Source: a virus. Taken from it: a DNA stretch of 64,000 nt. Made by a program: the position numbers and the translations under genes. The stretch covers positions 32,001 to 96,000 of IMG/VR virus record IMGVR_UViG_3300027973_000030; one strand, written 5' to 3'. The notes beneath the pieces are model-generated. The model was not told where the DNA came from, made no database searches, and worked only from the letters and a program-made list of their open reading frames with translations. Within the stretch, counting starts at the first letter, position 1; each line of letters starts with the position of its first letter. Of this stretch, positions 5,865-63,999 are shown in pieces.

Positions 5865-5932
5865 CACAGGGTTATAGATTGATAGCCAATAACTTTTATT
5901 GGAAAGATTCAAATTTATATAAATACAATGAA

Positions 5933-5981: not shown

Positions 5982-6008
5982 AATTTATAATCCTTAAAAT
6001 AAATTAAC

Positions 6009-9808: not shown

Positions 9809-9832
9809 CAGGATCCATGGGAGTTAATTAAG

Positions 9833-10450
9833 TTAAACAATATCTTTTATCTTGCCACACTTAAGACATTCTAATTCACCGTCTCCATCAGCGTCACCCC
9901 AAACGTGTTCACACTGACGATGTGCAAAATATTCATCAATCTTACCATCACCATCAAAGTCTAGACCGTCCATTGTACCGTCACCGTCTTCATCAATTTC
10001 TACACCTTTCTTAACTGGTACAGCAATTGGTTGTTCTGCTTTAACTTCAGCTTTAGAAGCTTGTGATTGAGCATTAGCTCTATCAGCAGCAGCTAAAAAT
10101 GCAGGATCTACTAAAGGTGTATGATCTTTAGGAGACTCTTTCATATCGTTTGTATGAGATAGAGTTACACCATCTTCTTCATCCATTTTCTGTACTAACA
10201 TTTTATCTTTATCTGTATCAGAGAACCAATAATCAATAATTTTACCATAAGAGCCAATAAAAGCTCCTAGTAACAATAATAATAACTCTTTCCATTCTCC
10301 TGCAATAGCAGTACCGTATGTAATAGCAGTAAAAATACCTGCTATAATAAGCATAAAAGAACCTAATACTAACGCTGTAATAAACCAGCGTCTTTGCATC
10401 ATTTCTCCTAACAGTTGTTTAAATCCACCAGATTCTGTGTTGTTTTGCAT
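9833..10450 (-). CDS. two-TM membrane protein with DxDxDG Ca-binding-like loops and C-terminal CxH/CxxC
   Basis: TM helices ending GKIIDYWF; DEDGDG, DFDGDG and DADGDG; CEH...CLKC. Confidence 0.75.
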   Translation of the reverse strand: MQNNTESGGFKQLLGEMMQRRWFITALVLGSFMLIIAGIFTAITYGTAIAGEWKELLLLLLGAFIGSYGKIIDYWFSDTDKDKMLVQKMDEEDGVTLSHTNDMKESPKDHTPLVDPAFLAAADRANAQSQASKAEVKAEQPIAVPVKKGVEIDEDGDGTMDGLDFDGDGKIDEYFAHRQCEHVWGDADGDGELECLKCGKIKDIV

Positions 10451-10467
10451 ATATTTATATTAATTGA

Positions 10468-10770
10468 TTACCACTTTGGAGCTTCTTCTTTAAACTCATC
10501 ACCTTCTTTCTTTTTAACAGGAGCCACAGGTTTAGGATCTGCAGCTTTCTGATTAATAATAACAGTTTTACCTCCAGCAGCTTGAGACTGCTGATTAGAG
10601 TTAGTGATGTTAATAACTGGAGCAGGAGCTGGAGCAGCTGCTTTATCTTCTCCTCCACCAAATAAGGTTGAACCTAACCATGCCCCACCAGCTGTTACAA
10701 CTGTAGCTATAGTACCTAATATTGTTTTTTTTAAACTTGAGCCGGTTGACTCTTCTTTTTCTTCTGACAT
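10468..10770 (-). CDS. small single-TM protein with P/A-rich tail
   Basis: ILGTIATVVTAGGAWLG segment; tightly packed in the operon. Confidence 0.7.
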   Translation of the reverse strand: MSEEKEESTGSSLKKTILGTIATVVTAGGAWLGSTLFGGGEDKAAAPAPAPVINITNSNQQSQAAGGKTVIINQKAADPKPVAPVKKKEGDEFKEEAPKW

Positions 10771-10776
10771 AATATG

Positions 10777-11154
10777 TTATTTTATAATTATTGGATGTTT
10801 AACTTCTTTACCTTTTATATCTATAAAGATAAGATCATAATCTTGCTTAGTCAAGCCAGATAGATCATATACTTTTTTAGTTAATTCTTCTGTAGCAGTA
10901 AAACCCTCTTTCTTAACTGGGTCTTCTTTACCAAATGGTACAATCTGTACAGAATATTTAGCTCCAACTGTTGTCTCAAACTCAGCTGTAATGCTGTTAC
11001 CCACTTGAGTGATAGACTTGATAGCCGTAGACTCGGATTTAACACCTAAATTAATAGGTTCTGGAGCTGGGATATCTATTTTAGTACAAGCATATAAAAT
11101 GACTGTCACTATAATAAGAAGATATACCACTAATAGTTTACTAGTTTCTTTCAT
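10777..11154 (-). CDS. lipoprotein with T9SS C-terminal-domain-like Ig fold
   Basis: Hydrophobic leader with LYAC lipobox; YDLSGLTKQDYDLIF...GKEVKHPIIIK resembles the type A T9SS sorting domain. Confidence 0.6.
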   Translation of the reverse strand: MKETSKLLVVYLLIIVTVILYACTKIDIPAPEPINLGVKSESTAIKSITQVGNSITAEFETTVGAKYSVQIVPFGKEDPVKKEGFTATEELTKKVYDLSGLTKQDYDLIFIDIKGKEVKHPIIIK

Positions 11155-11155
11155 T

Positions 11156-13288
11156 TTAAAAATTGTTATAACCGGTTAACTTAATTTGTGTAGAGTTAAG
11201 ATTTATTCCTAACTGATTTCCTTTAGAATCTGCAGCATCCATAAGAGGTGAAACTTTTACAGATGTAACAATGTTTACACCTTCACCAATTGTGCTAAAC
11301 TTAAGTTTAAATGGAGTGTTAGTTCCTTTAATAAACTCAGAGTTATTCTTATCTAAACCTCCAAACTTTACACGTCCATCTTTAGAACTAGCAAATACAT
11401 ACCAAGTGTTTGGTACATTACTTGTAAGCTCTTCAAATTTTATTTTAGCTGGATCAAATGTAAATTCAAACTGTAAACCAGAAACACTAGAAGTTTTAGC
11501 ATCTATATTTACTGGAATCTCAATTGTATTAGAAGTAACTGTTAAGTTATTTAAGTTTACATCAATATAACTAATATCAGCCGTAGAATTCATTGAAGTT
11601 CCTGTAGACTGTGCTTGTATAGACATAGTTTTAAATGCTGAGTTAGTAGCTAAGCTATTTACAGCATTTGTTTGTACAGTTGCTGTACCTGCAGAGCTTG
11701 TAACTACCTGCGAAGAGTGAGATCTGTTTACATCACCCCATAAAAGATATTTAAGGTCTAAGAAGGCATTAGTACCAAGAGTACCTGTTTTAAAATAAGT
11801 CTTAGGATAAGTAATATTCTTCCAGTTAGCTGCAGTGATGGTCCCCCATGAATGGTTAACATCTACATCAAATTCAAATTCTGCTTTTAAAGCATAATCC
11901 ACACCTTGACCATTAATATCACGTATAGAACTTACATATAACGAAGTACCGTCTTTAGCTTTAATAAGTGTTGAAGGTACAGTGTATTGGGCCCAAGTAC
12001 CATCATTAGATACATATTCAACTGGTCCAGTGTATATATCAAATAACTGAACACTTTTAACAGTGCTAGCTACTGAACTACTAGGAAATTCTCTCATATC
12101 AATACGTAATGTACTTGATGTAGAACCAGGAGTTACATATCCCCATTCTGCTTGACCTGCAATAGTTGTAACATCAGATGCTTTCCATGTAGGAAGACTC
12201 ATATAACCACCGCTACCTGAAGTGTAAGTACTAGGTAACATCATTAGCGTATCTAAACCCGCCACTTGTGCAAGAAGTTTAGGAAGATCACCACCATCTA
12301 TTGTTCTACTACGATTAATATCTGCAGCGTATAATGACTGTCCAGTTTTAATACTCTGACCGTTAGATCCGTCCAGTCCCATAGATGTAAATTCACCTTG
12401 AGCTGTAGTAAAATCAGATATAGTGATTGCATTACTATACATAGTATACAATTTATCTAACTCATGCATTACAGTAACCTCATACACTTTATCAGCAGAT
12501 AAAGAAGCTTGATTGATATCAACTTCACCTGTAGACGTAACAGGGAACATCACTCCTGTATTAGTAAGAGTATCTCTAAATGATACTTTTACATTAGATA
12601 TGCTATACAAGTTAGTATTTAAATCTACTTTAGCTGTTACATACTTACCATAGTTTTGGTTCATGATAACTGCTGTAGATAATGGATTTTCCATTGTAGT
12701 ATTATCATATTGACCAGATCCGTTCCATCCAGCAACAAAGTTTAACTTAATAGGATTAAAAGTGTATGCAGTGGAAGCAGCTTTAAGTCTAAACTTAATC
12801 TTAATAAAATCACTATAACCACTATAAGGCATAGCTGATGTAGTAGACCAAGTAAGCGTAGTTCTTAAAATAGCATATGGATTAGTTGTACCATAGTTAT
12901 AATTAGCGTATTGATAGTTAGTAGTACCATTAGTAGTAGTATTAGCTGCATTACCTGTTGCTACAGGAATAAAATTATAACCAGGATAGTTATAATAAGA
13001 AAGGTTAATAGTAGAGTTCTGAGGTAAAATACCACCGTTTCCACCTGTACCTGTGTGATTAACAGATACTAACTCAAAAACATCTCTGTCATATTGTACA
13101 TCAAATAATAACTGACGAGTAGTGGCATTGTTCATACCATTACCATAAATCACATAATCAAAAACGTCTCCTCTATTAAGAGAAGACCCACCTACATAAG
13201 TAGCAGCTTTGAACTTTTGTTGACTATACGAAAATGTCGCAATAAGTACTAAAAGTGTCGTAAAAAATGTCGTAATAAATTTTCTCAT
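11156..13288 (-). CDS. secreted cohesin / dockerin-like domain protein
   Basis: Signal peptide; N- and C-terminal cohesin-like beta sandwiches (LLFDVQYD; VSGLQFEFTFDP...FKLKF); dockerin-like ADINRSRTIDGGDL and GDVNRS loops. Confidence 0.7.
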   Translation of the reverse strand: MRKFITTFFTTLLVLIATFSYSQQKFKAATYVGGSSLNRGDVFDYVIYGNGMNNATTRQLLFDVQYDRDVFELVSVNHTGTGGNGGILPQNSTINLSYYNYPGYNFIPVATGNAANTTTNGTTNYQYANYNYGTTNPYAILRTTLTWSTTSAMPYSGYSDFIKIKFRLKAASTAYTFNPIKLNFVAGWNGSGQYDNTTMENPLSTAVIMNQNYGKYVTAKVDLNTNLYSISNVKVSFRDTLTNTGVMFPVTSTGEVDINQASLSADKVYEVTVMHELDKLYTMYSNAITISDFTTAQGEFTSMGLDGSNGQSIKTGQSLYAADINRSRTIDGGDLPKLLAQVAGLDTLMMLPSTYTSGSGGYMSLPTWKASDVTTIAGQAEWGYVTPGSTSSTLRIDMREFPSSSVASTVKSVQLFDIYTGPVEYVSNDGTWAQYTVPSTLIKAKDGTSLYVSSIRDINGQGVDYALKAEFEFDVDVNHSWGTITAANWKNITYPKTYFKTGTLGTNAFLDLKYLLWGDVNRSHSSQVVTSSAGTATVQTNAVNSLATNSAFKTMSIQAQSTGTSMNSTADISYIDVNLNNLTVTSNTIEIPVNIDAKTSSVSGLQFEFTFDPAKIKFEELTSNVPNTWYVFASSKDGRVKFGGLDKNNSEFIKGTNTPFKLKFSTIGEGVNIVTSVKVSPLMDAADSKGNQLGINLNSTQIKLTGYNNF

Positions 13289-13932
13289 TATAATAGTTTA
13301 TTTACCAATGAAACAGAAGCTTTCTTTAGAGCTGAACTTAAATTTTGTTGGTTAAACTTACCTCCCTCATCTACAAGAAGAGCGGACATACTTACCTCAT
13401 CAGCAGATTCCTCAACAGTTACTTTCTTCTCAAGTTTACCATCTTTGTATAGGTATCCTCTAAGTCTAATAACAACTGACTCTTTATTATTATGTAATAC
13501 TGAAAAACTAGATTGTGTTTTTAATACATCTAGATATATAATTTCTGCTGTAATTTTTAAATTAGAAGCTTTATCTAGTTCATATTCTTTTTCTTGAACT
13601 ACTTCTTCTAATATATTCTTTAGACCAAACTCTAGATTACGATTACCAGCTAAAGAACCTACAACAACTTTATTAGTTACAGATGATATATCTATCTTTT
13701 TAGGTTCTTCATACCAAATATTACCTGGACTGTCTTTAAAGGTTCCATCAAATGTCCAACTAAACCAGTTAGAAATGGCCATAGTCTTTTCTACTTGTCC
13801 TGAAAAGTGCAGGTACACCATATAACCCTCAAAGGTTAATGCAAATGCTAGCCATAGTCCTACAAAGACTAAAAAAGCTTTACCTATTAGGTCAAATAAC
13901 TTTTGGCTGTAATTAATAACGAGTGCTCTCAT
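13288..13932 (-). CDS. membrane-anchored CsgG/TolB-N-like fold protein
   Basis: N-terminal TM; LEFGLKNILEEVVQ...ITAEIIY...SALKKASVSLV resembles a CsgG-like alpha/beta domain. Confidence 0.5.
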   Translation of the reverse strand: MRALVINYSQKLFDLIGKAFLVFVGLWLAFALTFEGYMVYLHFSGQVEKTMAISNWFSWTFDGTFKDSPGNIWYEEPKKIDISSVTNKVVVGSLAGNRNLEFGLKNILEEVVQEKEYELDKASNLKITAEIIYLDVLKTQSSFSVLHNNKESVVIRLRGYLYKDGKLEKKVTVEESADEVSMSALLVDEGGKFNQQNLSSALKKASVSLVNKLL

Positions 13933-13965
13933 ATCTCTATATATTTATTAGAGAGCTTAGTAGTA

Positions 13966-14091
13966 TTATCTACCCTGCCCTCTATATTTACTAACTTTTT
14001 TAGCTTTAGGACCATTACTTTTACGTAAACGTCCACCTTTTCTTTTTCCAAAAGTGACTTTTCTTGAGTCACCAACTTTAGTTTTAGCCAT
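13966..14091 (-). CDS. small highly basic peptide (KYRGQG type), not in ORF track
   Basis: Translated by hand: MAKTKVGDSRKVTFGKRKGGRLRKSNGPKAKKVSKYRGQGR*. Confidence 0.75.
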   Translation of the reverse strand: MAKTKVGDSRKVTFGKRKGGRLRKSNGPKAKKVSKYRGQGR

Positions 14092-14103
14092 TATTTGTTG
14101 GTT

Positions 14104-14703
14104 TTATGCAAGTAATGCATGATATTCTTGAAAGTGTTTGATACGATCAGGTAAACCTATAGTACCGCCATTAACTCTTTTAGTTATTTTAGTTACTACT
14201 TCAGAACTAGATCCTGTATCTGCAATTAGATTTAAACCATTCTTTTTCCAGAACCATGCTGCAGAAGCTAACGCATGCTTAGAAGAAACTAAGTCTGGAT
14301 TAGCAAGAATATCATCTTCTACGGCTAGATCAAATGCAGTGTAGTTTTGTTTACCAGTTAACTGAATATAACCTCTTCCACGGAATTTATAACCTTCACC
14401 TGAAGCTTCTAATCCATTACCCATTCTACCACCGTATACACGGTTAGCAATCTTTTCTGGTTTACGAGCGTAAGCATCAGCTAATGCTTGAGTAGGAAAG
14501 TATTTCTTAAAAATACCCATAAGACCTTTAGCTGAGTAGTTAAGGTTTTCTTGAGTAAGTCTGAATCCACCAGATTCATGACCACACTGTGCTAAAAAAT
14601 GTGCAAGACGTAAAGACGTATTTACACCAAACGTATCTATGACAGCCGGGATCTGTGCAATTACAGTATCCGGAACATGCCCCCTAAGCTTTTCTAAATT
14701 CAT
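14104..14703 (-). CDS. glycoside hydrolase family 19 endolysin
   Basis: AHFLAQCGHESGG, ENLNYS, FRGRGYIQLTG, AAWFW and ITKRVNGG motifs. Confidence 0.93.
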   Translation of the reverse strand: MNLEKLRGHVPDTVIAQIPAVIDTFGVNTSLRLAHFLAQCGHESGGFRLTQENLNYSAKGLMGIFKKYFPTQALADAYARKPEKIANRVYGGRMGNGLEASGEGYKFRGRGYIQLTGKQNYTAFDLAVEDDILANPDLVSSKHALASAAWFWKKNGLNLIADTGSSSEVVTKITKRVNGGTIGLPDRIKHFQEYHALLA

Positions 14704-14719
14704 ATGTATAGTGTGTTTA

Positions 14720-14863
14720 TTACTTCTTCTTCTTACTAGCAGTACCAGACTTAATCTTTACTGATGTTTTCTTAACTTCGTTAGCAACTTGAGCTGCAGC
14801 TACTGCTTTCTCAACCTTGCTACCAAATAATAACTTCTTAACTAATTCAATAATCTTTTTCAT
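14720..14863 (-). CDS. small basic protein
   Basis: MKKIIELVKKLLFG...SKKKK, with ATG at 14863 immediately after the upstream stop. Confidence 0.6.
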   Translation of the reverse strand: MKKIIELVKKLLFGSKVEKAVAAAQVANEVKKTSVKIKSGTASKKKK

Positions 14864-14864
14864 A

Positions 14865-15491
14865 TTATTTTGTTTTTTTACCAATCTTCCAGTATGTCTG
14901 GAAACCATAAGATATATTACCATTGACATCAGATCCGGCTTTTAAACCATAGATCTTGTCTGATTTAGTTTTTAATATTAATCCTGCTTCTGCAGAATGT
15001 AATCCTAATGTTTGTGTTGTATTAACACCACCACCTACGTATAACTGATTCTTTGGTTTAGCATAATTAGTAACCGTAACTGTTTTAGTAACAAACGGTA
15101 TCTTATAATTATACTGCCAGGATCTACCTATAATTTTATTTTCTCTTACAGAATCTGTAACTGAAACATAACCTAGTGTATCTAGCTTTACACTGTCAAT
15201 GTATATAGCTAATGCTGTATAACTTTTAACAAGATTATCAAACTGTATCTTTAGAGCTGCATAATTAGTATCAGCTAGATATTCAGTTTTACCTTCTATA
15301 AATAAGCTATCATGTATAATCTTAGCCGGCTTAGGTTTAGCAAAGATTAAGCTATCATGAACTGACCAAGTAGTATCATGTACTACAAGAGTATCAGACC
15401 CTTGATGACTAGCTCCACCTATACAACCTTTATTCTGTAAAAGAACAAAGACTACTAGTACACCTATAATGAAAAAATATATTTTATTCAT
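14865..15491 (-). CDS. spanin-like / lysis accessory protein
   Basis: N-terminal TM, DT/DS-rich Bacteroidota-type stalk and C-terminal beta strands ending YWKI; lies between the holin-like gene and the endolysin. Confidence 0.55.
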   Translation of the reverse strand: MNKIYFFIIGVLVVFVLLQNKGCIGGASHQGSDTLVVHDTTWSVHDSLIFAKPKPAKIIHDSLFIEGKTEYLADTNYAALKIQFDNLVKSYTALAIYIDSVKLDTLGYVSVTDSVRENKIIGRSWQYNYKIPFVTKTVTVTNYAKPKNQLYVGGGVNTTQTLGLHSAEAGLILKTKSDKIYGLKAGSDVNGNISYGFQTYWKIGKKTK

Positions 15492-15726
15492 CTACTTTCT
15501 TTTTAAATGAGAACTTATCTCCAGTGTCACCAATTAATGCTGCTATGCAGATGTACATTACTGACTCTACTAAAGCATCTGAAGGTTTAATATCACCATG
15601 AGAAAAGCTATTAGCAGTTAATGTAACACATAGAAACAGTGCACACATAAAACCTACAACAGGTTTAATGGATGTGGTTCCACGCTCATCTTTGAAAAGA
15701 TCTAAAACCCATTGTTTAAAAGTCAT
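15484..15726 (-). CDS. putative holin
   Basis: 80 aa, two TM segments, charged C-terminus, located in the lysis cassette. Confidence 0.6.
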   Translation of the reverse strand: MTFKQWVLDLFKDERGTTSIKPVVGFMCALFLCVTLTANSFSHGDIKPSDALVESVMYICIAALIGDTGDKFSFKKKVDE

Positions 15727-16024
15727 ACTTAATTGTTTTATAATATTTACCTTTTAACGTTTTGTTATCAGGCAGAACAGCTAGAACTTGTTGAAAATCA
15801 ATAAGTTGTTTAGTAGGTTCTTCTGGAACACTTGCAGTTTTAAACATCTGACGCTCTAAATTATCAATCCTGGTCTTGTCTATATTAGACTGAGCCATTA
15901 ATAACTTTACATCAGATTTTATTTCGTTTACATCATTCCATATGAGTAAACTAACTAAAGATACTAGTGTAGGAAACACCCACACTTTAAAAGCTGCTAT
16001 AGACGGGTTTTCTCTAGGAGTCAT
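15716..16024 (-). CDS. single-TM coiled-coil protein (holin/antiholin-like)
   Basis: N-terminal TM followed by a heptad region (RIDNLE). Confidence 0.55.
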   Translation of the reverse strand: MTPRENPSIAAFKVWVFPTLVSLVSLLIWNDVNEIKSDVKLLMAQSNIDKTRIDNLERQMFKTASVPEEPTKQLIDFQQVLAVLPDNKTLKGKYYKTIKYDF

Positions 16025-16033
16025 TGCATTACC

Positions 16034-16303
16034 TTATTTAGTAGGTTGAAACTCATAAACTAGACCAGCAGGCTTTTTTAAGCTAGCAATCAATGAGTTA
16101 GCAATGATTTTACCATTTCTGTCTTTACGTACAAAATATCTCATACTATTCTCACGAATGTTTTGAGGACTTGTAATAGTATCAGCAGCTGGAATCTCAA
16201 TAGTATCTACTGGAACTGGTTGTTCAGCAGAGATACTTTGCATTGTACCCGGAATAGGATATCCTAAATAATCCTTTTGGGCATAAAACTTTTTAGTTAC
16301 CAT
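16034..16303 (-). CDS. hypothetical protein, first gene of the - strand operon
   Basis: 89-aa ORF with an internal two-repeat look (FYAQKDYLGYPIPG / YFVRKDRNGKIIAN). Confidence 0.7.
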   Translation of the reverse strand: MVTKKFYAQKDYLGYPIPGTMQSISAEQPVPVDTIEIPAADTITSPQNIRENSMRYFVRKDRNGKIIANSLIASLKKPAGLVYEFQPTK

Positions 16304-38883: not shown

Positions 38884-41800
38884 TTATCCTGCTGCTTCAC
38901 AACCAGCGTCATCTTCTTTCTTACGCTCATCTAACTCTTTCCTTCTAGCTTCTAACAATATCTTCATATTTTTCTTAGCTTCTTCAGGATCAACTTCAAA
39001 GTTAGGAACTTTTATGTCAGTTTCCTCAGTAGCTTTAAAAGTATTTTTCATAGCTTTAGGTGACGTAGTTTCCTCTCTAGGAGCTTGATTTAGCATACGT
39101 AGTAACTCAGCAGGTTCTGTAATATCAGTTTGATATGGTGTGTTCTTACCATTTTCTACTTTAAAGAATGTAATCTTATTACCTATAAACTGAATACGAA
39201 TACCCCAATCTTGCTGTAGCTCATAAGCTTCTTGAGAAGTTAACACTGGATTTATATTTCCTATAATGTTATCTATAGATGCTTCAGCTTTAGATATAGA
39301 ATCATCAAGACCGTACTTCTTACTGTTTGCAGCTTGCCTATTTCTAAGAACTACATTAGTAGGCATCTCACCTGTTAAACCTCCAACCTTCCATTGTTTC
39401 TTAGAACCAGTGGGATCAAACTTCTCATAGATAGCTGTATTACTTAATGCTATAGTATCACCTACTTCTTTAATAAATGAACCAATACCTTCTGTAGGAG
39501 TAGACTTAGTAACAGTTTCTTGTAGTCTTGTAAGTTCTGCATTTAAATACTCAAATGTTCTAGGAGCTTTCTCTGAAAGTTTAGCTAATCCAACACCAAT
39601 TGGGGGAACTAATAATTTATTATATTTACCTGTATTCCAAGCTGCAATAATATTGTCTATATCTGCAGTAATTATACGTGCATTTTCTTCAAACTGATTA
39701 TCAGATTTAAAAGCAGAATCATCCATATTAGGAGCTTTCTTAGTAGAAATACCCATAGCATTAGGTTCTCCTCTCATCTCTTTAGCTTGACCACCCAAAC
39801 CACTTCTTTGATCATTATCTCCAAAGACATATAATGTACCTGGATTTTTCTTAAGATCTTCTCTTTTAAGAATTCTAGTAGTTCTTGAAAAAGCAGTAGC
39901 TGTATCTACTTTTTTAGCAGTGCTTCTAAGCTTATAGAAAATAGCCTTTTCATTAACTCCTTTTTGACCAGTTACAATTTTAATAGTATAAGGAAGTTCA
40001 ATATAGTATCTATTGTTACCTTTATCATCAGGACGATTTGTTAATTTAAAACCGTTAGCTTTAAGAACTTCTTTATTATAGTTTAACTTATCTAGGTCTT
40101 TTTGTTCAAATTTACCTGTAGCTATAACTTCATCTATAAATTCATTACCGTATTGATCAGTTAACAACATCATTTCTGGTTTACGAATACCACCAAACAA
40201 GTCAATTGCTAATATAGAATTATCTTCAGACTGCAGTATGACTTCAGGTACATATCCTTTAGGTTTATTCTTTTCAACCTCTGTTGAAGGTTTAGCACCT
40301 GCATAAACACGCTTGATATTAAATGCATTATTAATATTTGTAGTGTATAATCCAGTAAACTGATTAAACAACTCCATAGCTGTAGCACCAAATATTTCTT
40401 TATACTTCTCATTATCATTAATTAAAGCATCTTCTTTAAGTAATTGATGAGAAACTCCTGTTGCATCTAACAACTCTTTAAACATAGCAGGAGGAATAAA
40501 CTTAATAAAACTACCGCTCTTAAACTGACCACCGTCTTTAACTATAAGATAGTTAAACATGTTGTAAGCTAACTGTCTAGTCTTAGGATTACTATATATC
40601 TCAATAAAGCTATCTGCAATACGATTTTGTTCGTACTCTCCTAACTTAGCCCATGTATTAGACTCTACAGTGTTGATACCACCTCTAGACTTAGCATTGT
40701 AATATTCTTGACTGCTGTTAGCGTCATATAACTTTACAGGAATAATGTTTAAGAACTTATTAGCAAAGTAGTTCTTAGGTAATTGCTGTCTTATAGACTT
40801 AACTGTATCAATTATATCCATAAATCCATCACCTCTAGACACAGCTTCAGCATCATAAATCATAGCATTATCTAAACCGGCAAGCTTAGCTCCTTTACCA
40901 TTTACCTTTAAGTATTGTACATAAGCTTTGATACCTAGGTAAGCTATAATGTCACGCTTAAGTGTTGTGTTAAAAGTCTCAGTCTCTTTCTTAGTAACTT
41001 GTAAGTTGTTAAGAATTGTATTCTTAAGCCTTTGGAAGATGTAAGTCTTTTCTGTAAAGACACTCTTCTGAAGTTCTTTAATCTGATTCTTTATTCTTAT
41101 ATAGTTAGCTGTAATATTGTGATGTGGTTTAGCAGCTTCTTTACCTGTAAGTACTTGACGAACATCAAAAGGTATCTTACTCTTAGCAAAATCAACATCA
41201 CCCATATTCAAACCTAACATCTCTTCTTTCTCTTCTATCTTATCAATAGACTCATTACTTGTACCTAAACCTTTAGATAGTTTAAGTACTTGAGCTACAG
41301 CAGAATAGTATTCAGTTTGGTTATAAAACTGTAAGAAAGAATTGAATACTGCAAAGTCAACGTCTGAATTAGTACCTGCAGACTTAATATTATTCTCTAA
41401 CAAATCAGTAGTAATATCTTGTACTCCAGAATCTTTAGATAGTTTAGAAGCAAGTTCTTCTAATAGCTTATCACCCACTTGTGACTTAATTAACTTTTCT
41501 TCTTGAGTAGTTTTAATCTTTTTAGAAGCTACCTCAATACGTTTGTAGAACTCACGAACCGATGGCTGTAAGTTAAACATAAGTGCTGTTTCTAAAGGTA
41601 CACCTAGTGCCACCATATTAGATACAACACCTACAGCATTAATATTAAGACCAAGTCTAGCAGCTAAACGCTCTTTAGCGTTATCCGTCATAGCAGATAC
41701 TATAGCAGAAATATGATAGAATATACGCTCACCTTCGTAAGTGTCAGTATCTTTATTATATGCCTTATTATATTCATAACTGTTAAACTTATGACCATCT

Positions 41801-55611: not shown

Positions 55612-57666
55612 TTACTCATTGTAAGGGTTAGGGTAGCCAAATGGGTATGCACTTTGAGCTGTTGGAGCCATATACTGAGCATTAATAGCTGCAGCATTAT
55701 TTGCATTCCTACGAGATCCAAAAGCATTAGGAAATTTTCTTTCCATTAACATATTAATTGTACCAGAATCTAATGATTTATCTGTTTTCAAACGAGCAGC
55801 ATAGTTTTCCATTTCTTGTAATGTAGCAGTATCAGTTAGACCTGCCTGACCAGTAACCATATTCATCCAACCATTTTTATCTTTCCACTTAATATACTTT
55901 CCTTGATTACTATCTTCTAAAGAGTAATAAGGATTAGTTTGATTAAGTACAGTTTGTTTACCAGCATTTTCATACTCGTTCATATCATACATATCTCTAT
56001 TTCTAAGATCCATTCTCATAGCATTACGATAAGCTTTGTCTTCTTGCTGACCGTTGTATACTAACTTATCTGCAGCATCAGCTCTATATGCCATTACCTT
56101 ATTCATAATATCTGTTTGTAAAGGACTAAACTGATTAGCTACTCCTACACTCATATTCTGATATTTACCTTGAGTATTACCAACTTGTTCAGCTCCTTGA
56201 GCATTTAAAGCATTGACTCTAGCAGAAAACTGTTGAGGATCCATTTGCTGCATGTAAGCAGCCATCATACTACGTTGTGATGCACCTTCAGCCAACTCTC
56301 TGTTAGGATCATAGAACGTAGGTTCTGGTATCATAGCATTAAGAGGAGCGGCATACGGTGTATAACGTTTAGAAGGAACCATAAACTGTTTACCAAAGAA
56401 CGGTCTTCTTCCACCTGGTGTTTCATCACCCCCACCTCCACCAGTTCCACCACCAGTAGGTATTTCATCATAAGTTATTTCAGCAGGAGGAGTTTCCCAT
56501 GATCTAATACACTTAGTAGGATCATTAGGATCTGGAGTATAATAATTCTTTTCTCCGTTAGGTCCATCTGGACAAGTTTTAGTCTCAGGTGTTCCAGGTA
56601 CTACATTTCCAGGAGCAGCCGGTGTATACTTTGGCATTTTACCATGAAGCATATCCCACAATCCTTTTTCTTTTTCTGGATCTGTAGCATCTTTAAAACC
56701 TTGCTTATTTAAGAAAGTATTGTAACAACCAGGTCTAGCTTTCATATCTGCTAGTGTATACTTAAGATTACCACAAGGTCCTCCACCTGTAGGACCACCT
56801 CTAGGAATATTATATCCTGGAGTTAATGATCCAGGTTTACCACCTGTAGTACTACCTGCTTTACCAGGAGTTATAATAATATCTTTACTATCTTTACCTG
56901 ACGTACCAGGTTTTCTCCAAATATTTGTATCACCTACTTTTTTATAACCTTCTTTTTCATATTTAGCAATCTCTTCCTTCTTAACTTTTTTAGGACTAGT
57001 AGTACCGCCACCTTGCATATAGTCTCCACCATCTTGATAGAAACCACCCATCTTAGCTAGTTGTTCTCCCATACCTTCAGGTAATATAGACTTAGCTACA
57101 TCAGGAATACCTTGAGGAAATCCTTTCATACCTTCTTGAACTAAAGCTAAACCACCTAACTTCTTTTCAAAGTTTTGAATCATCAAAGCTGCAGTGTTTT
57201 TAGACATCTTATCAGCATATGGATCGTCAAGGATTGCTTTATACTTGTTAACATCATATTGTTTAGCTAGTTCAGCAGGTGTGTATTTTTGTTTAGTCTC
57301 TGGAGACTTACCAAATTTACCTAGAACAGCACCACCAATACGTAACTTCTTAGTATCTGAATATATAAATGTACCTTCAGGAACTTTTAATGGTGTACCA
57401 CCTTGTGTATGTTTTTTACCACCGATGTTCATATGTTCATTATGACCATCGTTATTAAAGTCTCCATAAGCAGTCTCACCTTTCTCTGCTTCAATGTTAG
57501 CTTCATCTCTATCAACTGGTTGTAGAGTTGTGGATACTGAATCATATGGATTATTATTCATATCAGAGTAAACATTTCTCTGACCTAAATCTAAACCATA
57601 ATTACTTTGACCTCCATAAGCCATAGACTCTGGAGCACTTTTAATTCTTACTTTATATGTTTTCAT
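55612..57666 (-). CDS. virion cargo-like protein with xxGG motifs
   Basis: ANIEAEKGE...GKKHTQGG...FIYSD domain seen in crAss-like structural-region genes; G/P-rich middle. Confidence 0.7.
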   Translation of the reverse strand: MKTYKVRIKSAPESMAYGGQSNYGLDLGQRNVYSDMNNNPYDSVSTTLQPVDRDEANIEAEKGETAYGDFNNDGHNEHMNIGGKKHTQGGTPLKVPEGTFIYSDTKKLRIGGAVLGKFGKSPETKQKYTPAELAKQYDVNKYKAILDDPYADKMSKNTAALMIQNFEKKLGGLALVQEGMKGFPQGIPDVAKSILPEGMGEQLAKMGGFYQDGGDYMQGGGTTSPKKVKKEEIAKYEKEGYKKVGDTNIWRKPGTSGKDSKDIIITPGKAGSTTGGKPGSLTPGYNIPRGGPTGGGPCGNLKYTLADMKARPGCYNTFLNKQGFKDATDPEKEKGLWDMLHGKMPKYTPAAPGNVVPGTPETKTCPDGPNGEKNYYTPDPNDPTKCIRSWETPPAEITYDEIPTGGGTGGGGGDETPGGRRPFFGKQFMVPSKRYTPYAAPLNAMIPEPTFYDPNRELAEGASQRSMMAAYMQQMDPQQFSARVNALNAQGAEQVGNTQGKYQNMSVGVANQFSPLQTDIMNKVMAYRADAADKLVYNGQQEDKAYRNAMRMDLRNRDMYDMNEYENAGKQTVLNQTNPYYSLEDSNQGKYIKWKDKNGWMNMVTGQAGLTDTATLQEMENYAARLKTDKSLDSGTINMLMERKFPNAFGSRRNANNAAAINAQYMAPTAQSAYPFGYPNPYNE

Positions 57667-57687
57667 ATTCTTATAGATATTACAAAT

Positions 57688-59526
57688 TTATAGAAATTCT
57701 ACCTCACCACCTGAAGCTAGTATATGTTTTATTTCATCTTCAGTTAATTCATATACTCCGTCAGGTTCATATGATTTAGAATTAATAGACCCACCTTCAG
57801 CAAAAAGATTCATATCTTTTATTTTAGTATAAGCTTTTTTACCTTCCCACCTAGCAAATTCTTTAAAAAGCTTATCTTTTTCTGCAGGAGATAGATCACT
57901 TAACCTCTTATCTCCTCCCATATTTTTTACTATATCAGATGTAGAAGCATTAGGTGTATTACGATTACCACTCACCCATTGATTTCTAGCTTCAGATATA
58001 GTTAGACCTGAATAGTTAGGACCAAATAATAAATCTTTACCAGCTTGAATTCCTGTATTAAGATCTGGGAACCTACCTACATTTCCACCACTATCTTTAG
58101 CACCTTTAGTAGCTCCATATTTAGAAGTAAAATCTCCGTAATGAATGTTTAATGGATTGTTATGTGATAAAGCAACTTCATCACTATTGTCTGAACCTCT
58201 ATTAAAGCTTACATGAACATGATCAGTATGAGGATTATCTCCATTATATGGTCTCCAAGAATCAGATACAGATGGATTCCATATCTGCTTATTCCAGATA
58301 ATATATTTAACGTTCTTATCTTGAGCTTCTTTAATAAGCTTTTGAGCTATCTGAGTTCCTTGATCAACACCTAAGATACCAATATCTAAAGCATCACCAG
58401 TGTTATGATCACTTACCTTTTTTTGGTGAGCTTTATCTCCCCATATACCATAGTTCTTAACTCCTTGAAACTGAGAAGAAATCTCTTGCCAAGTTTGTTC
58501 AGCTATAGGATTAGCTCCACTACTTGCTGCTACTGGAGCAGAAGATTCATAAGCTTCACCTGTACTAACTGGATTAGTCAATGCTGCAGACAACTGAGTT
58601 TCTTCTATAGGCATAGTTAATGCATCAGGAATAACACCCCCACCATACTGAGCCATACGTGGTAAGAACTGACCTGTATACATTCCTTTATTTACAACAT
58701 ACTCATCAGGTCTAAACTCACCAAATCTACTACCACTAACTACATAGTCTCCACGATTACCTGACATTTCACTAGTAACTTCAGGAAATAATGAGTCTGT
58801 AGATGTTTGACGTCTCATATACTTATCAAAATCTTTCTTCTTTTTATATCCGTTAACTAACTGTGTACCAAGGTTTCCCCATGATACAAGTTGGTCCATA
58901 CCTTCAAAAGCTTTTTCTACAGGTTGTCCTATATTTTTATTATACCAACCAGCTGCTTGTGCAAGTTTACCAGGACCTTTAGCTTGTGCAGCTGCTGCAG
59001 TTTGTGGTGGTTGATAATTTTCTCCAGCAGGATCTGTATCAAAACCTTCATCATCCCACTCACTATGCCATTTTCTAGCAGGTTGTGGTGTAGTTATAGG
59101 TGCAGCTGGTTGAGCTGTACCCATTGGTTGAACTGCTGCAGGTAAAATATTATTAGATTGGCTAAATGGATTAATACTAGCAGCTTGCCCAGAAGCTGAT
59201 AAAGGTTTAAAACTTAAACTAGGAGCTTTAGGAGCTAATGATCTAAGAAGATTTACTCTATTATAATTAGGTGTTGTAAAGTTAGGCATTACAGACTTAG
59301 GTGTAGTCATACTAGTATTAAATGTATTAGTATTAAACTGTCCTTTAGAATCTAAAGCTTGTTTAAGTAAAGCAATACCACCAGGACTATTAGGATCTAT
59401 TTGCATACCATTGTATTGTACTGCACCATTAGACATACTTGTAGGCATACCAAACTGACTAGCTGGTAAACCATTAGTTCCAAATTGAGCTTTTGGCATG
59501 CTCCTACCTGTAATACGTATTTTCAT
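57688..59526 (-). CDS. modular protein with peptidase M15-like and lysozyme-like domains
   Basis: SDHNTGDALDI...YIIWN...HTDHVHVSF; HNNPLNI...FPDLNTG. Confidence 0.7.
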   Translation of the reverse strand: MKIRITGRSMPKAQFGTNGLPASQFGMPTSMSNGAVQYNGMQIDPNSPGGIALLKQALDSKGQFNTNTFNTSMTTPKSVMPNFTTPNYNRVNLLRSLAPKAPSLSFKPLSASGQAASINPFSQSNNILPAAVQPMGTAQPAAPITTPQPARKWHSEWDDEGFDTDPAGENYQPPQTAAAAQAKGPGKLAQAAGWYNKNIGQPVEKAFEGMDQLVSWGNLGTQLVNGYKKKKDFDKYMRRQTSTDSLFPEVTSEMSGNRGDYVVSGSRFGEFRPDEYVVNKGMYTGQFLPRMAQYGGGVIPDALTMPIEETQLSAALTNPVSTGEAYESSAPVAASSGANPIAEQTWQEISSQFQGVKNYGIWGDKAHQKKVSDHNTGDALDIGILGVDQGTQIAQKLIKEAQDKNVKYIIWNKQIWNPSVSDSWRPYNGDNPHTDHVHVSFNRGSDNSDEVALSHNNPLNIHYGDFTSKYGATKGAKDSGGNVGRFPDLNTGIQAGKDLLFGPNYSGLTISEARNQWVSGNRNTPNASTSDIVKNMGGDKRLSDLSPAEKDKLFKEFARWEGKKAYTKIKDMNLFAEGGSINSKSYEPDGVYELTEDEIKHILASGGEVEFL

Positions 59527-60956
59527 TAGTCAATAATTTCAAAATTATAACCACCTTGTTTTAACATTTGTAATTCTTCTGGCGTAACATCAAGTACATC
59601 ACCTTCTACTGGACCACCCATTTGCTTAGCAAAGTTCTTAGCAAAGTTAGCTTTTTTCCTCATAGCAGGACTATACTTTCCTTTAGGAGCGTTAAGTATA
59701 GTAGATGCAGCTTGTTGTACTCCCATGCCCATACGAGTTGCTTGAGCTTTAAATGTACCTTTCTTAGCAGGATCTAGATGTATACCACCATATGCCATTT
59801 CTCCATATTGAGGAATATATGTATCACTATCTGTTATCATAGAACCACCCACTTGATACCACGCATTACCACTAAATGTAGAACCACCATTCTTTCTTGT
59901 AGGAGCAACTGCTAATGACTTTTGCATAGCTTTACTAAACTGCATGTCATCCGCTACCTTTGTCATACGACTAAGATCTGTTTTGCTACTTCCAGGATGT
60001 GGATTAGTCATAATACAAGAAAATGTACCATCTCCATTACTATATTTAGTATAACCTGGAGGACAATCAAAACCACCTGGTCTAGGTATAGAACCTGCTG
60101 TGTTTGATACAGGGTAACCTGTTACATAATCTTTGTGATAAGCTGAAGGATACTTTTCAGCATCTGCAGCATTTTGTTCAAGTATAGAATTATAATCAGG
60201 TTGACCACCTTGTTGATAGTTAGCACCTGGCATTTCATTTTCTGGTTCTTGTTGTTCACCATACTGCATATAATCAGCTACAGTATTAAGATAGTCATCA
60301 GCTAATGTAATCTTAGAAGCAACCCAAGGATCAACTTCTGTATCAGCACTATTAATAAACTTTTGTAAACGAGATAACTTATCATGCATAGCAGCTATTT
60401 GACCCATAGCCATACCTGCATTACTTTCACCACCGTCTGCCATCTCACTCATTGGATTATAATGTCCACCATATCCCATATTACTTAAGATCTTAGCTTG
60501 TACATAATCAGGTAGTGCATCAAAACCTGCATTGTTAGTACCACCGTTACCATACACTCCACCATATGCAGCTTCTTGTGCACGAATCTTTGATTCTTGT
60601 TCTAGCATTTCTTTAGTGGGTTTTTTACCAGAACCTTTATTAGCTCTAATATTATCCCATAAACCACGTTTAGAATAAGAACCATCAGCTCTACGTATCA
60701 TTCCACCATCAACAAACATACCTGTAGTATATCCACCATATGCCATAGCAGCTTGTTCCATATCAGGTTGCTCTTGTTGTTGAGCACTACCTTGTTGTAA
60801 AGTCTGCATCATCTGTTGAATAGCTTGCTGTTGTTGTTCAGCGGGCATCTGTTGTAGCTTCTGCATTAACTGTTTAGGATCAATCTTATTCATCTGAGCA
60901 TACTGTTGAATAATCTGCATGATCTGAGCTTGTTGCCCACCTTGTTGAAAGTACAT
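59526..60956 (-). CDS. modular polyprotein-like protein segmented by about 13 xxGG motifs
   Basis: FQQGG, MAYGG, FVDGG, AAYGG, YGNGG, MGYGG, MADGG, YQQGG, RKNGG, YQVGG, MAYGG, KQMGG, LKQGG. Confidence 0.8.
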   Translation of the reverse strand: MYFQQGGQQAQIMQIIQQYAQMNKIDPKQLMQKLQQMPAEQQQQAIQQMMQTLQQGSAQQQEQPDMEQAAMAYGGYTTGMFVDGGMIRRADGSYSKRGLWDNIRANKGSGKKPTKEMLEQESKIRAQEAAYGGVYGNGGTNNAGFDALPDYVQAKILSNMGYGGHYNPMSEMADGGESNAGMAMGQIAAMHDKLSRLQKFINSADTEVDPWVASKITLADDYLNTVADYMQYGEQQEPENEMPGANYQQGGQPDYNSILEQNAADAEKYPSAYHKDYVTGYPVSNTAGSIPRPGGFDCPPGYTKYSNGDGTFSCIMTNPHPGSSKTDLSRMTKVADDMQFSKAMQKSLAVAPTRKNGGSTFSGNAWYQVGGSMITDSDTYIPQYGEMAYGGIHLDPAKKGTFKAQATRMGMGVQQAASTILNAPKGKYSPAMRKKANFAKNFAKQMGGPVEGDVLDVTPEELQMLKQGGYNFEIID

Positions 60957-60960
60957 AATG

Positions 60961-63900
60961 TTATTTTTTATAAGTTACTTTTATACTGTGTTTCTTTTCT
61001 AAATATTGTTTACCTAAAGCTACACCACCCATTTGTTTTTTAGGAGTAAAGTTTGGATTCTTAGAATTAAATGGTTGGTAATCATTAGTATTCCAAATAC
61101 GACCATACCAAGTATCATTATAATCACTATTAGGTACACCAGGAGCTGGGTTATTTATATTTCTATAATACCAATCTCTTCCTTTATTCATTAGAACTCT
61201 TCTTTGGTTTTCTGGAAGTTTACCTATTGTACCATCATACTCTTGATCAAATGAATATGGTGCATTTTTTCTACCTGCCCACTTACCATGTGCATCTAAT
61301 TTAGATCCATCATTCTCTCTATAGTATTCTTGTAAAGCAAACGCTCTAGGATCTTTAGTTATTTTATTATTAGCTTTATCCCACCCTGCATTAAATATAA
61401 AGTCCATAGCTTCACCAGCTTCCATAGCACTTGCGTTTGGTAATATTTTTTGTACTTCAGGATATATTTTATCCATAAGTATTGTTTTATACTTAGGGTC
61501 TCTATAATCAGGATTACCATTTGTACCATCTAAAGGTGCACTACCTGAACCTCCTCTTAATACTTCATATTGTAATATTTTATTAGCTTGATGTCTAACA
61601 CTATCTGTTTTACTAACTTGTCCTGCCATTTGATATGGTGGTATAGTACCGCCATCTTCCCAAGTCTTTCTAGCAAATGCTCTAAAGAATGGATTACCAG
61701 CTAAGTTACTTTTATGTCTAGCATAGAAAGCAGCTTTTCTTTTAGGATCATTAGGATGCTGTCCTAATTTAGAATCACCAAAGTATTTAACAGTTCCATC
61801 AGGTCCTGTCACTTTATGTGTCTTACCTTTTCTATCATGACTTCTAGTTACTACATATCCTCCACCTTTCATTTTATTTTTACTAGCAGTAAGTTTATCA
61901 TATTCTTTATCAGCTAATATTTGAAACTCTTCTCTCAATTTAGGTTCAATAATAGAATGAGCTTCATACTCTTGAGTACCTGGAGCATAATAGTTTTTAT
62001 CATACGCACTTTTCCATGAGTCTGCATTAAATATATCACTTAAACTCATATTCTTTAATGTGTTTAAGTAATCATTACCTATGTGTGATTTAATAAATCC
62101 TAGGTTACCTTTTTTATTTAATTGTACTTTATGAGCTAGTTCACTAATAAGTGAATCACCACGATAATCACTTTCAGGATTATGTATTTGTAAAGTGTCA
62201 CTGAAAGGAGTAACTCTAAGCATAGGTCTATCTTGCTTATCAAGCATCTTTATATCATGACCTTTATATTTAGTATACATCTGTTCTCCTGCAAGATAAG
62301 AAGACATAGGACTATTTACAGGTGACTCACGATCTTGCCAATCTTCAGCTTCTTTCCTCCATCTATCAAAATAAGCTTTAGCTGTAGGGTTTCTATGTCC
62401 ATAAACAGTTACTTCTGGAAGAGTATATCCACCAGTTTGCATCATAGGATATTCATCCACATGCTCAGCTTCACCAAAAGAATAATCTTTACCTGGATAC
62501 ATCATTTGCTTTTTACCATTAGAACCTATACCTAATACAGGATAGTTAACACCTTGCATAGTAATGTCTGATCCTGGTATACGTGTAACCTCACCTGGGT
62601 GAGCCCACTGACCCATTGGATCTACCACTGGACCACCTTGTGCATAATATCCTTTTTTCTTAAGTGCCTTTATAATACGATCATAGTCAATCTGATTAAC
62701 ATCCGGCTTACCTAATACTTCTTTATCTTTAGGGTTAGCTTTCATATAGTTAGTACGGATCTGCTTATGAGTAATAATACTATTTAAAGGTATCTTATTC
62801 TTCTTAATAATAGGACCAGCGTATTCTACAAATGAGTTAATCTGTTTGTCTGTAAGACGAGTCTTATCAGTATCACCTTGGAATTCTATACCTACACCAA
62901 AGTCATTTACATTATCTCTACCATTCATCATTGACTTACCAGCATGGAAAGTAACTTGATCTGGACGAGCGTAATTATAACGTGTACCATCAAAGTCAAT
63001 CACTACGTGTGAAGACTCACCAGGATTACTAAATTGTTTAGCAACACCTTGCATAGCTTTAGACATTCCTTTACTTACACCTGTAGTATCTGAGTATCCT
63101 GTATGGTGAAGAATAATAGCTTTCTGTTCATTAGTTAATGAGTGCCCCTTTTTAAAAGACTCATCATTCTTAGTCCTAATGTTAGGAGTATTCATTGGTA
63201 CATCTCTAAACTGAGTTTGTGGTGCCGCCTCGTTAGTACCTCTAGTATAATTACCTGGTTTTAAATATAAAAACGCAGAACCACTTGTATTTTCACCTTG
63301 ATAATCTTTAAGTTGTTGAGCTGTAATCTTTTGATTTTTATTTCTAAGACCCATAGCATAACTACCATTATCAAGCGTTATAGCTTCTACATATGGATTG
63401 TCACCTTTAATTTGTTTAAACGCTCTACGTATATCTTCTGCTGAACCTGATACTAAGAACTGTTCACCTTTAGGAGTTTTAAAAATAACACGTCCTCCAG
63501 TAATCTGACCAAATGATTTAGTGTCTCTATTCCCTTTAGGTATTAATAGATTTAAACTACCTTCAGTCATCTTACCATCATCACCCATTACTTTTACAAC
63601 AGGACTAAGATGTTTATTAGAAGCTTTAGCTTTTGAGTCTTTAAGTTTCATAGAGCCGTCAGCTTCATCTATAAAGTCAACAATCTTATTACCAAATGTT
63701 TTAGTAATTCTATAATCAGTATTTACAAAATCTGCCTTATTACCAACTTTGATTTTACCAGCTGCATCTACACCAATATAAGTTGAGTTGTTAGCATCTT
63801 TAGCATTTTTAGCAAAGTAGTCTTTAGCTTTCTCAAATGATTGGAATGTAGTAATATCTGCTGCTTCTGTATCAATATCTTTATATTCATCTCTATTACG

Positions 63901-63999
63901 TGTATCCCAATTAGTTTGATTAAGATCGATCATAGCTGGAATAACATAACGATTTTTATCTATGTTTATAGTATCTCCTGTAGATATAGCTGGTCTACC
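60961..63999 (-). CDS. large modular protein with N-acetylmuramoyl-L-alanine amidase (Amidase_2) domain, 5'-truncated by window edge
   Basis: Frame is open to the window end; IILHHT, SSHVVID, FHAG, GIEF and ITHKQI; further modules separated by xxGG motifs. Confidence 0.8.
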   Translation of the reverse strand, partial: GRPAISTGDTINIDKNRYVIPAMIDLNQTNWDTRNRDEYKDIDTEAADITTFQSFEKAKDYFAKNAKDANNSTYIGVDAAGKIKVGNKADFVNTDYRITKTFGNKIVDFIDEADGSMKLKDSKAKASNKHLSPVVKVMGDDGKMTEGSLNLLIPKGNRDTKSFGQITGGRVIFKTPKGEQFLVSGSAEDIRRAFKQIKGDNPYVEAITLDNGSYAMGLRNKNQKITAQQLKDYQGENTSGSAFLYLKPGNYTRGTNEAAPQTQFRDVPMNTPNIRTKNDESFKKGHSLTNEQKAIILHHTGYSDTTGVSKGMSKAMQGVAKQFSNPGESSHVVIDFDGTRYNYARPDQVTFHAGKSMMNGRDNVNDFGVGIEFQGDTDKTRLTDKQINSFVEYAGPIIKKNKIPLNSIITHKQIRTNYMKANPKDKEVLGKPDVNQIDYDRIIKALKKKGYYAQGGPVVDPMGQWAHPGEVTRIPGSDITMQGVNYPVLGIGSNGKKQMMYPGKDYSFGEAEHVDEYPMMQTGGYTLPEVTVYGHRNPTAKAYFDRWRKEAEDWQDRESPVNSPMSSYLAGEQMYTKYKGHDIKMLDKQDRPMLRVTPFSDTLQIHNPESDYRGDSLISELAHKVQLNKKGNLGFIKSHIGNDYLNTLKNMSLSDIFNADSWKSAYDKNYYAPGTQEYEAHSIIEPKLREEFQILADKEYDKLTASKNKMKGGGYVVTRSHDRKGKTHKVTGPDGTVKYFGDSKLGQHPNDPKRKAAFYARHKSNLAGNPFFRAFARKTWEDGGTIPPYQMAGQVSKTDSVRHQANKILQYEVLRGGSGSAPLDGTNGNPDYRDPKYKTILMDKIYPEVQKILPNASAMEAGEAMDFIFNAGWDKANNKITKDPRAFALQEYYRENDGSKLDAHGKWAGRKNAPYSFDQEYDGTIGKLPENQRRVLMNKGRDWYYRNINNPAPGVPNSDYNDTWYGRIWNTNDYQPFNSKNPNFTPKKQMGGVALGKQYLEKKHSIKVTYKK

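Follow-up and report, generated by a model that had tools for sequence, protein, structure and literature searches.

Core proteins of adenoviruses and of African swine fever virus (ASFV) are matured by Gly-Gly-directed proteases, namely the adenovirus protease and pS273R, and double-glycine leaders are cut by C39 peptidases. To our knowledge, no tailed phage matures polyproteins by cutting at Gly-Gly. Crassviruses outnumber all other phages in the human gut, with marine and freshwater relatives being common, and we know of no mechanism described for the loading and expulsion of their more than 1 megadalton of protein. In this study, a recurring Gly-Gly motif was analysed in four adjacent proteins of 2048, 476, 612 and 684 amino acids (aa) encoded by a crAss-like phage. 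The window, i.e. the whole stretch of DNA that was analysed, comprises 64,000 nucleotides and corresponds to bases 32001-96000 of the 131,294-base virus record IMGVR_UViG_3300027973_000030 of IMG/VR, which is rated complete. The motif is a bulky residue (M/Y/F/W) followed by two further residues and Gly-Gly (GG). It marks the borders of small modules which are gained, lost and reordered among related proteins, and it may serve as an uncut, recognised seam in cargo proteins of the phage particle.

We know of no repeated joint motif in the ejection proteins of podoviruses. These proteins (T7 gp14-16, P22 gp7/16/20 and those of N4) are described as being carried within the virion, leaving it ahead of the DNA and including wall hydrolases (PMC10172136). 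The four proteins studied here are probably similar in these respects, but no sequence relation between them and the podovirus proteins was found. A further likeness is to the polyvalent proteins, in which 2 to 15 domains are joined in one phage or plasmid polypeptide (Iyer et al. 2017, PMC5512222). As described there, many unrelated domains per polypeptide are delivered with the DNA and domains are shuffled, whereas the proteins of the present locus consist mostly of mini-modules of 5-85 residues joined by a fixed peptide and not of conflict-system enzymes. At least two domains per polypeptide were found here, since the 2048-aa protein combines an amidase with mini-modules and the 612-aa protein a peptidase with modules. 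The closest described locus is that of the Bacteroides phage crAss001, whose genes are ordered as ring/tubular gp43, muzzle gp44, cargo gp45, cargo gp46 and then the polymerase-associated giants.

The open reading frames (ORFs) of the complete record were taken from a simple caller, which gave 127 ORFs of at least 60 aa covering 94.8% of the genome. The phage is crAss-like, as shown by its crassvirus-type capsid and tail ring proteins: Pfam matches above the cut-off were obtained for Crass_capsid (E 2.4e-30) and, in the genes directly upstream of a 1686-aa gene, for CrAss_Ring_2 (E 2.1e-21) and CrAss_Ring_1 (E 8.2e-12), and PHROG matches in the genome included terminase, portal and head protein. 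The late operon closes in very large minus-strand genes of 1686, 2048, 476, 612, 684, 1033, 4512 and 1719 aa. Like gp45, the four-protein block follows the ring and muzzle genes and precedes the giant genes, and we read it as the cargo block of this uncultured phage. Based on this gene position and on their wall-hydrolase domains, the four proteins are probably packed in the particle and injected. The proposal of an earlier sequence-only reading that they are late proteins was thus borne out, since they are virion-module proteins at the cargo position.

That reading had listed 24 copies of the motif, and all of them (24/24) were found in the translations of the four proteins, although one, YQMAG, is not a GG. 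The ORF which it had described as longer than 990 aa is real and carries the six motifs listed for it, but it is only the C-terminal part of the 2048-aa gene. With its own pattern, [MYFK]..GG, 25 matches were counted in the 3,820 residues of the four proteins versus 29 in the 37,688 residues of the other 123 ORFs. The motif is therefore 8.5 times denser in the four-protein block than in the other ORFs. The expectation from composition was obtained from 2,000 composition-preserving shuffles per protein. The observed number of matches was never reached for the 476-aa protein (10 observed, shuffled mean 1.27, 0/2000), so that its Gly content does not account for the motif; it was reached in 25/2000 shuffles of the 684-aa protein (6 observed, mean 1.97), 57/2000 of the 2048-aa protein (6 observed, mean 2.32) and 128/2000 of the 612-aa protein (3 observed, mean 0.91). 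The enrichment is very strong in the 476-aa protein, moderate in the 684- and 2048-aa proteins, and not significant in the 612-aa protein alone. A sharpened pattern, [MYFW][AQ].GG, which was picked post hoc, occurs 13 times in the four proteins and twice in the other ORFs. The Gly-rich tail-fibre proteins served as a control; GG is abundant and the motif scarce in them, for example in a 764-aa protein with 14.7% Gly, which has 22 GG and 3 matches to the loose pattern. The motif is likewise not enriched in the 1033-, 4512- and 1719-aa proteins, where 6, 14 and 3 GG stand in inconsistent context, as had been stated before. One and the same motif peptide is encoded by varied codons, and the GG codons track the Gly usage of the genome. 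The variation of the codons argues for selection on the peptide and not on the DNA; a DNA-level repeat or recombination signal was ruled out by the varied codons together with the ordinary Gly usage of the GG codon pairs.

For the 476-aa protein, 1,203 metagenomic homologues were found at E<=1e-3, and the sequence-level statistics refer to the 120 listed ones. In 671 distinct GG contexts of these proteins, position -3 was M in 39%, Y in 21%, F in 8% and W in 5%, and position -2 was A/Q/E/K; a bulky residue stands three places ahead of nearly every GG. For the 684-aa protein, 1,655 cluster representatives were found at E<=1e-3. Among the best 150 of these 1,655, with a pairwise identity of at most 50%, M/Y/F/W stood at position -3 in 35% of 1,435 GG runs, compared with a background of 12.6%. 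Of 42 relatives, 41 retain the first GG of its GG-rich joint (G207-G208), and the columns of its N-terminal tag are similarly conserved (I8 in 36/38, P12 in 34/38, G18 in 34/39 and Q20 in 32/39). The cluster members were named only as 'hypothetical protein', and a tblastn search with the 684-aa protein in 50,697 phage records gave no match. These data suggest that one short peptide rule may cover thousands of cargo proteins, gp45 of crAss001 included.

The homologues are strings of units of 5-85 residues which end in the motif, and the order of the units varies among relatives. For example, one unit that belongs to the 476-type protein in two related contigs resides here in the 2048-aa protein, and a motif of the MYFQQGG type, with which the 476-aa protein begins, also precedes the Q-rich module where relatives carry that module internally. 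The units include halves of DUF5872, DUF5754 (Tlr6F), DUF3597 and a YkuD domain. Tlr6F has been described as conserved and of obscure role, occurring in polinton-like viruses, giant viruses and some phages (PMC12220804, PMC4642659, 10.1101/2022.07.28.501842). The position of the module borders was analysed with 1,510 internal BLAST local segments among the 120 listed homologues, segments which are related to one another and hence non-independent. Exactly at the end of a GG run ended 27% of the segments versus 3% at random positions (n=1,510), and 68% of the segment ends and 64% of the starts fell no more than 5 residues away from one, versus 28% at random. The motif therefore marks module boundaries far above the random level, and modules were gained, lost and reordered there among homologues, both as had been predicted.

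The two halves of DUF5872 behave as separately shuffled modules. At locus L004, this domain is split and permuted over a gene border (2942-6688 / 6694-8277), with its C-terminal half (model positions 48-111, E 3.5e-12) ending a 1248-aa protein and its N-terminal half (1-45, E 0.0034) opening the next gene.

Modules also occur alone. A search for shorter relatives gave 2,118 matches, and among the 120 listed many are small single-module proteins, some of them on contigs of 55-100 kb. At locus L012 (5715-7246) of crassvirus cr10_1 (MT774382.1), a 75-aa gene product annotated as 'transcriptional regulator', encoded between the portal and capsid genes, consists of the basic cargo module alone, preceded by a leader ending in GG. 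A neighbouring gene product of 432 aa, annotated as 'peptidase', matched no Pfam peptidase family and showed just a weak aRib domain. When a homologue bearing the Tlr6F and YkuD modules was used in a tblastn search, only the basic module was recovered, in 20 records of crAss-like or uncultured gut phages.

The seams also coincide with the ends of genes. The 684- and 612-aa proteins start with a conserved tag that consists of MK, a short strand, Pro and then the motif, and the 476- and 612-aa proteins share an end-module at their C-terminus, with which 99 of the 120 listed 476-aa homologues also end. An anchor following the tag was located in 91 of the 150 representatives of the 684-aa family; the tag was N-terminal in 9 of them, internal in 53 and not found in 29. 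Among the 53 internal tags, 48 have a GG at most 16 residues upstream, and in none of the fused relatives (0/53) does the end-module stand ahead of the internal tag. The same arrangement of tag and end-module was seen in two related contigs. Genes thus fuse and split exactly at the seams.

The internal tags of the fused 684-aa relatives (P0265-P0349) retain their Met (n=53, with a search pattern that required Met), and this residue could be an internal translation start or merely reflect a hydrophobic requirement. The complex predicted for the end-module of the 612-aa protein (residues 560-612) with the tag of the 684-aa protein (residues 1-50) scored 0.15, compared with a mark of 0.32.

In the AlphaFold2 model of the 476-aa protein, built on a 49-row alignment and with a mean predicted local distance difference test (pLDDT) of 61, mini-domains are confidently predicted at residues 8-56, 180-234, 396-444 and 459-476. 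Segments with pLDDT <50 account for 38% of the residues and hold 12 of the 14 GG runs, the remaining two coming immediately after predicted helices. In the model of the 684-aa protein (mean pLDDT 74), 8 of 14 GG runs, including all four motifs of the earlier list, lie in segments with pLDDT <50, and four (at residues 82, 89, 111 and 171) lie within a confident domain at residues 45-200, so that not all GG are seams. The proposal that the motifs follow the domain boundaries of predicted structures held for the listed motifs of these two proteins, which mostly lie in predicted disordered joints. The motifs have been kept by evolution even though the stretches containing them are predicted to be disordered.

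A direct link to a cargo protein of determined structure is provided by the basic module. In tblastn, the 476-aa protein matched the gp45 homologue of Dulem virus 41 with 72.7% identity over 44 residues (E 2e-11), and this Dulem virus 41 protein matches gp45 of crAss001 with E 3e-39; the basic module common to the 476-aa protein and gp45 corresponds to gp45 residues 375-428. Cryo-EM structures containing gp45 have been reported (PDB 7QOG, 7QOI, 7QOJ, 7QOL and 8CKB; Bayfield et al. 2023, PMC10172136), in which twelve copies of two gp45 segments bind the portal and the tail barrel, the resolved portal-bound segment being 425-552 (PMC10172136). When this published segment (PMC10172136) was mapped on the sequence, it was found to run continuously across the GG at 427-428, 434-435 and 447-448. 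The first of these is the GG that follows the module shared with the 476-aa protein, i.e. the counterpart of KQMGG. In the main text of PMC10172136, gp45 is treated as a single chain from capsid to tail, and 'cleav-', 'proteoly-' and 'protease' do not appear there. Gel bands of crAss001 are given in PMC6235969 and may be relevant to the question of whether gp45 migrates as a full-length protein. Cutting at every site, as the sequence-only reading might have it, is at odds with this uncut chain. Besides its genome place and the one basic module, gp45 shares with the proteins here a motif near its start and motifs flanking its resolved segments, its canonical motifs ending at residues 21, 265 and 563. 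Unlike gp45, the present locus has its string spread over four genes, far more motifs, and enzymes (amidase and peptidase).

A homology of the 684-aa protein itself to gp45 was also considered. BLASTP between the two was not significant, hhalign of residues 90-182 against gp45 466-544 gave a probability of 32% (E 4.9e-4) with 42 alignment rows and of 2.7% with 4 rows, and a profile search of PDB sequences with the 684-aa protein did not recover gp45; together these searches fail to establish the relation. The whole 684-aa model gave no informative match in Foldseek (pdb) or VIA-align (pdb_via_wide), the lists being dominated by the extended helix around residues 446-528. Chance matches only were returned when PDB sequences were searched with the 684- and 476-aa proteins, and crAss_CARG1 (PF25725), the model for the portal-bound domain of gp45, had no match at E<=10 in the six frames of the whole genome.

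Taking these results together, we put the chances at about even that the motif is an uncut, recognised seam in extrudable cargo proteins. Such proteins would be chains of small self-folding modules, i.e. wall-digesting enzymes, small basic units, and Q-rich and acidic helical units, with a conserved seam peptide placed in a flexible stretch ahead of each module. The Gly-Gly hinge would let adjoining modules fold and unfold independently, so the chain could be stored extended and threaded through portal and tail, and the conserved bulky residue would turn the hinge from a plain linker into a recognised handle. A module together with its seam would fit at any position in the chain, which would lead to shuffling, insertion and loss of modules at seams and to gene fusion and splitting there. 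In this explanation we infer packaging, ejection, the absence of cutting and a binding partner of the handle.

Several findings weigh against such a seam. No partner of the putative handle was identified, and, in global alignments, both ends of insertions of >=12 aa lay within 5 residues of GG in 22% of cases versus 6.5% at random, none (0%) being exactly at GG. Among the Met-starting listed proteins, GG stands directly before the module in 49/52 cases for one module and 37/39 for the other (the exceptions, three and two, mostly begin at or near the module itself), and, of the 46 listed proteins not longer than 100 aa, 43 are free of GG over their final 12 residues. In many cases the stand-alone module is preceded by an N-terminal leader of 6-48 residues that ends in GG. 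Since the motif lies ahead of the stand-alone modules and not behind them, it belongs to the front of the module, and these leaders suit a seam no better than a propeptide. Furthermore, the motif lies only 7-29 residues from the start in three of the four proteins and in gp45, where no linker is needed. Pro directly follows the canonical motif in 4 of 492 distinct contexts compared with 26 of 673 for all GG (contexts that are homologous and non-independent), a rarity that cleavage sites would show. The GG inside the resolved segment of gp45 do not have M/Y/F/W at -3, and the canonical motifs bracket the resolved pieces. Finally, the protease search described below was based on Pfam models alone and covers 125 of the 127 ORFs of the virus, with host proteases outside its scope.

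The leaders, the motifs close to the N-termini and the rare Pro would all be understandable if the four proteins were poly- or pro-proteins which a host protease, or a phage protease that escaped recognition, cleaves behind Gly-Gly, freeing small basic proteins and enzymes and removing leaders. The exposure of the sites in predicted disorder and the occurrence of modules (DUF5872 and DUF5754/Tlr6F) as free small proteins elsewhere agree with such processing, as do the likenesses to the adenovirus, ASFV and C39 systems: the short site with Gly-Gly at its end and a bulky residue slightly ahead of it, the short GG-ended N-terminal leaders, and the small basic products that would result. The short GG-ended leader before a module, a trait of double-glycine systems, is present here, the spacing of other leader residues lying outside the comparison. 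These systems nevertheless differ from the present one in three points. No such protease gene was found, since neither Peptidase_C48 (Ulp1-like, PF02902), C5 (adenain, PF00770) and C39 (PF03412) nor S78 (the HK97-type prohead protease, PF04586) was matched at E<=1 anywhere in the complete record of 131 kb, and Pfam searches of 125/127 ORFs gave no maturation protease and only Peptidase_S74 (a tail-fibre chaperone), one of the scans listing 25 of 34 families; a maturation protease encoded outside the window, as earlier supposed, was thus not found. The bulky residue is one place further from the GG, at P5 instead of the P4 of the adenovirus consensus, so the proposed adenovirus-like register does not fit. 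At least one homologous site, the crAss001 counterpart of KQMGG, is uncut in a chain unbroken over three GG. Many pieces between motifs are merely 4-12 residues long and would be odd products, four GG of the 684-aa protein lie inside its confident domain, and the 'peptidase' beside the stand-alone module gene of cr10_1 has no peptidase family to support the annotation. The cleavage reading of the motif is in sum not supported, and we regard such processing as possible but doubtful. Slightly more doubtful is its strongest form, in which the seams would be Gly-Gly cleavage sites of tailed phages, served by an unrecognisable phage protease or a host enzyme, and a counterpart of adenovirus and ASFV core maturation. 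If this were true, relatives of Tlr6F and DUF5872 would be freed as small basic proteins together with the enzymes, and the two gp45 pieces in the capsid and tail of crAss001 need not be one chain.

It is also conceivable, though quite unlikely in our view, that the motif, alone or with the tag MKIRITG...GG, acts as a multivalent address which binds the procapsid interior, the portal or the tail lumen during loading. Modules travelling with their motif would then carry all they need, and such an address would fit the density of the motifs, which often stand in tandem (three within 20 residues in the 684-aa protein), their conservation despite disorder and their retention at extreme N-termini, where a hinge is superfluous. 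The portal-bound gp45 segment opens with a GG-rich stretch, and gp45 is present as twelve copies of two segments (PMC10172136). A general cargo address is contradicted by the 1033-, 4512- and 1719-aa proteins, which do not follow the rule; moreover, no partner was identified, and three stand-alone copies of one module begin without the motif. Least likely, and indeed very improbable, is that the motif is a by-product without a role of its own, made up of helix ends and Gly-rich linkers in Met/Tyr/Gln-rich proteins and spread by descent. Of the 14 GG runs in the 476-aa model, 5 or 6 come immediately after a predicted helix, the residues preferred at position -2 (A/Q/E/K) are helix formers, and Met, Gln and Gly are more frequent in the four proteins than in the remaining proteome. 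Such an origin is hard to combine with the failure of shuffles to reproduce the motif in the 476-aa protein, with its retention across family members at most 50% identical and with its scarcity in the Gly-rich fibre proteins of the same phage. Leaders and N-termini carry the motif with no helix or module before it, and by these a helix cap as the sole cause was ruled out.

The motif pattern is apparently undescribed, and no literature was found in which a Gly-Gly (diglycine or double-glycine) motif is connected with cargo or ejection proteins of crassviruses. New are the stand-alone copies of two modules with a GG-ended leader and no trailing motif, and the fusion and fission of genes exactly at the joints. 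The motif rule gives an experimental handle on cargo processing, on addressing to the particle and on free module exchange. For annotation, the motif marks cargo genes and delimits their mini-modules, including the Tlr6F and DUF5872 units shared with eukaryotic viruses.

Table 1 Features of the four-protein block and the genes downstream of it (window coordinates)
Feature	Position	Strand	Remarks
2048-aa gene, C-terminal 1012 codons	60961..64000	(-)	runs off the window; complete at genome 92961-99107
Amidase_2 (N-acetylmuramoyl-L-alanine amidase) in 2048-aa protein	62740..63123	(-)	residues 271-398 of the 990-aa ORF; PF01510, E 1.4e-17; PHROG amidase/endolysin families
476-aa 'string of beads' protein	59526..60956	(-)	14 GG runs, 12 of them in the earlier list
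MYFQQGG, first seven codons of 476-aa gene	60936..60956	(-)	already a motif
C-terminal end-module of 476-aa protein, residues 449-476	59529..59612	(-)	found at true C-termini only
612-aa protein	57688..59526	(-)	N-terminal tag MKIRITG, cell-wall peptidase-like domain, C-terminal end-module
Probable zinc peptidase of Hedgehog/DD-peptidase kind, residues 366-442 of 612-aa protein	58201..58431	(-)	phrog_32486, E 2.1e-9
C-terminal end-module of 612-aa protein, residues 590-612	57691..57759	(-)	same type as the 476-aa end-module
684-aa protein	55612..57666	(-)	predicted disordered N-terminal tag, confident domain 45-200, GG-rich joint 204-223, long predicted helical C-terminal part
N-terminal tag of 684-aa protein, residues 1-19	57610..57666	(-)	ends in MAYGG; conserved, predicted disordered (pLDDT ~42)
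Joint of 684-aa protein, residues 204-223	56998..57057	(-)	three motifs in 20 residues; pLDDT <50
Giant genes of 1033, 4512 and 1719 aa	33696..55553	(-)	same operon, without the motif rule; placed like crAss001 gp46 and polymerase-associated proteins (position only)

The coordinates of the features are collected in Table 1. In the probable zinc peptidase of the 612-aa protein, the residues S372-x-H-x-x-G-x-A-x-D381 and H436-x-H438 are invariant in 3 relatives, a pattern which we take to be VanY/M15-like; the match of this domain to Pfam Extensin-like_C was weak and below the cut-off (E 0.0047). No Pfam family was found in the 684-aa protein.

Among the neighbouring genes, the 1686-aa protein resembles the crAss001 muzzle gp44 at the same position, around residue 130 (130-146; 15/39 identical, BLASTP E 0.014), a similarity that hints weakly at a muzzle. 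The 1033-aa protein gave no match to crAss001 gp46. In the 4512-aa protein the sole Pfam family was DUF7831 (E 1.4e-35; residues 4183-4295, window 39538-39876 (-), near the C-terminus), and no polymerase family was found in it by Pfam, its presumed virion RNA polymerase role being putative. Outside the window, a 426-aa gene lies between the portal and capsid genes (genome 12245-13525); it is without a PHROG match, has only a sub-threshold Pfam match, and could encode a scaffold or an unrecognised protease.

A Gly-rich 1206-aa ORF at genome 1-3618 (-) runs past the start of the record, and the 'linear' record was therefore probably cut within a gene of a circularly permuted genome. Other late minus-strand genes (window 7516-16303 and elsewhere) encode a class I chitinase/GH19-type lysin, a cohesin-domain protein, a GNAT acetyltransferase and DUF5856, and matches to a bpMoxR ATPase and a cREC_REC domain were obtained among the early genes.

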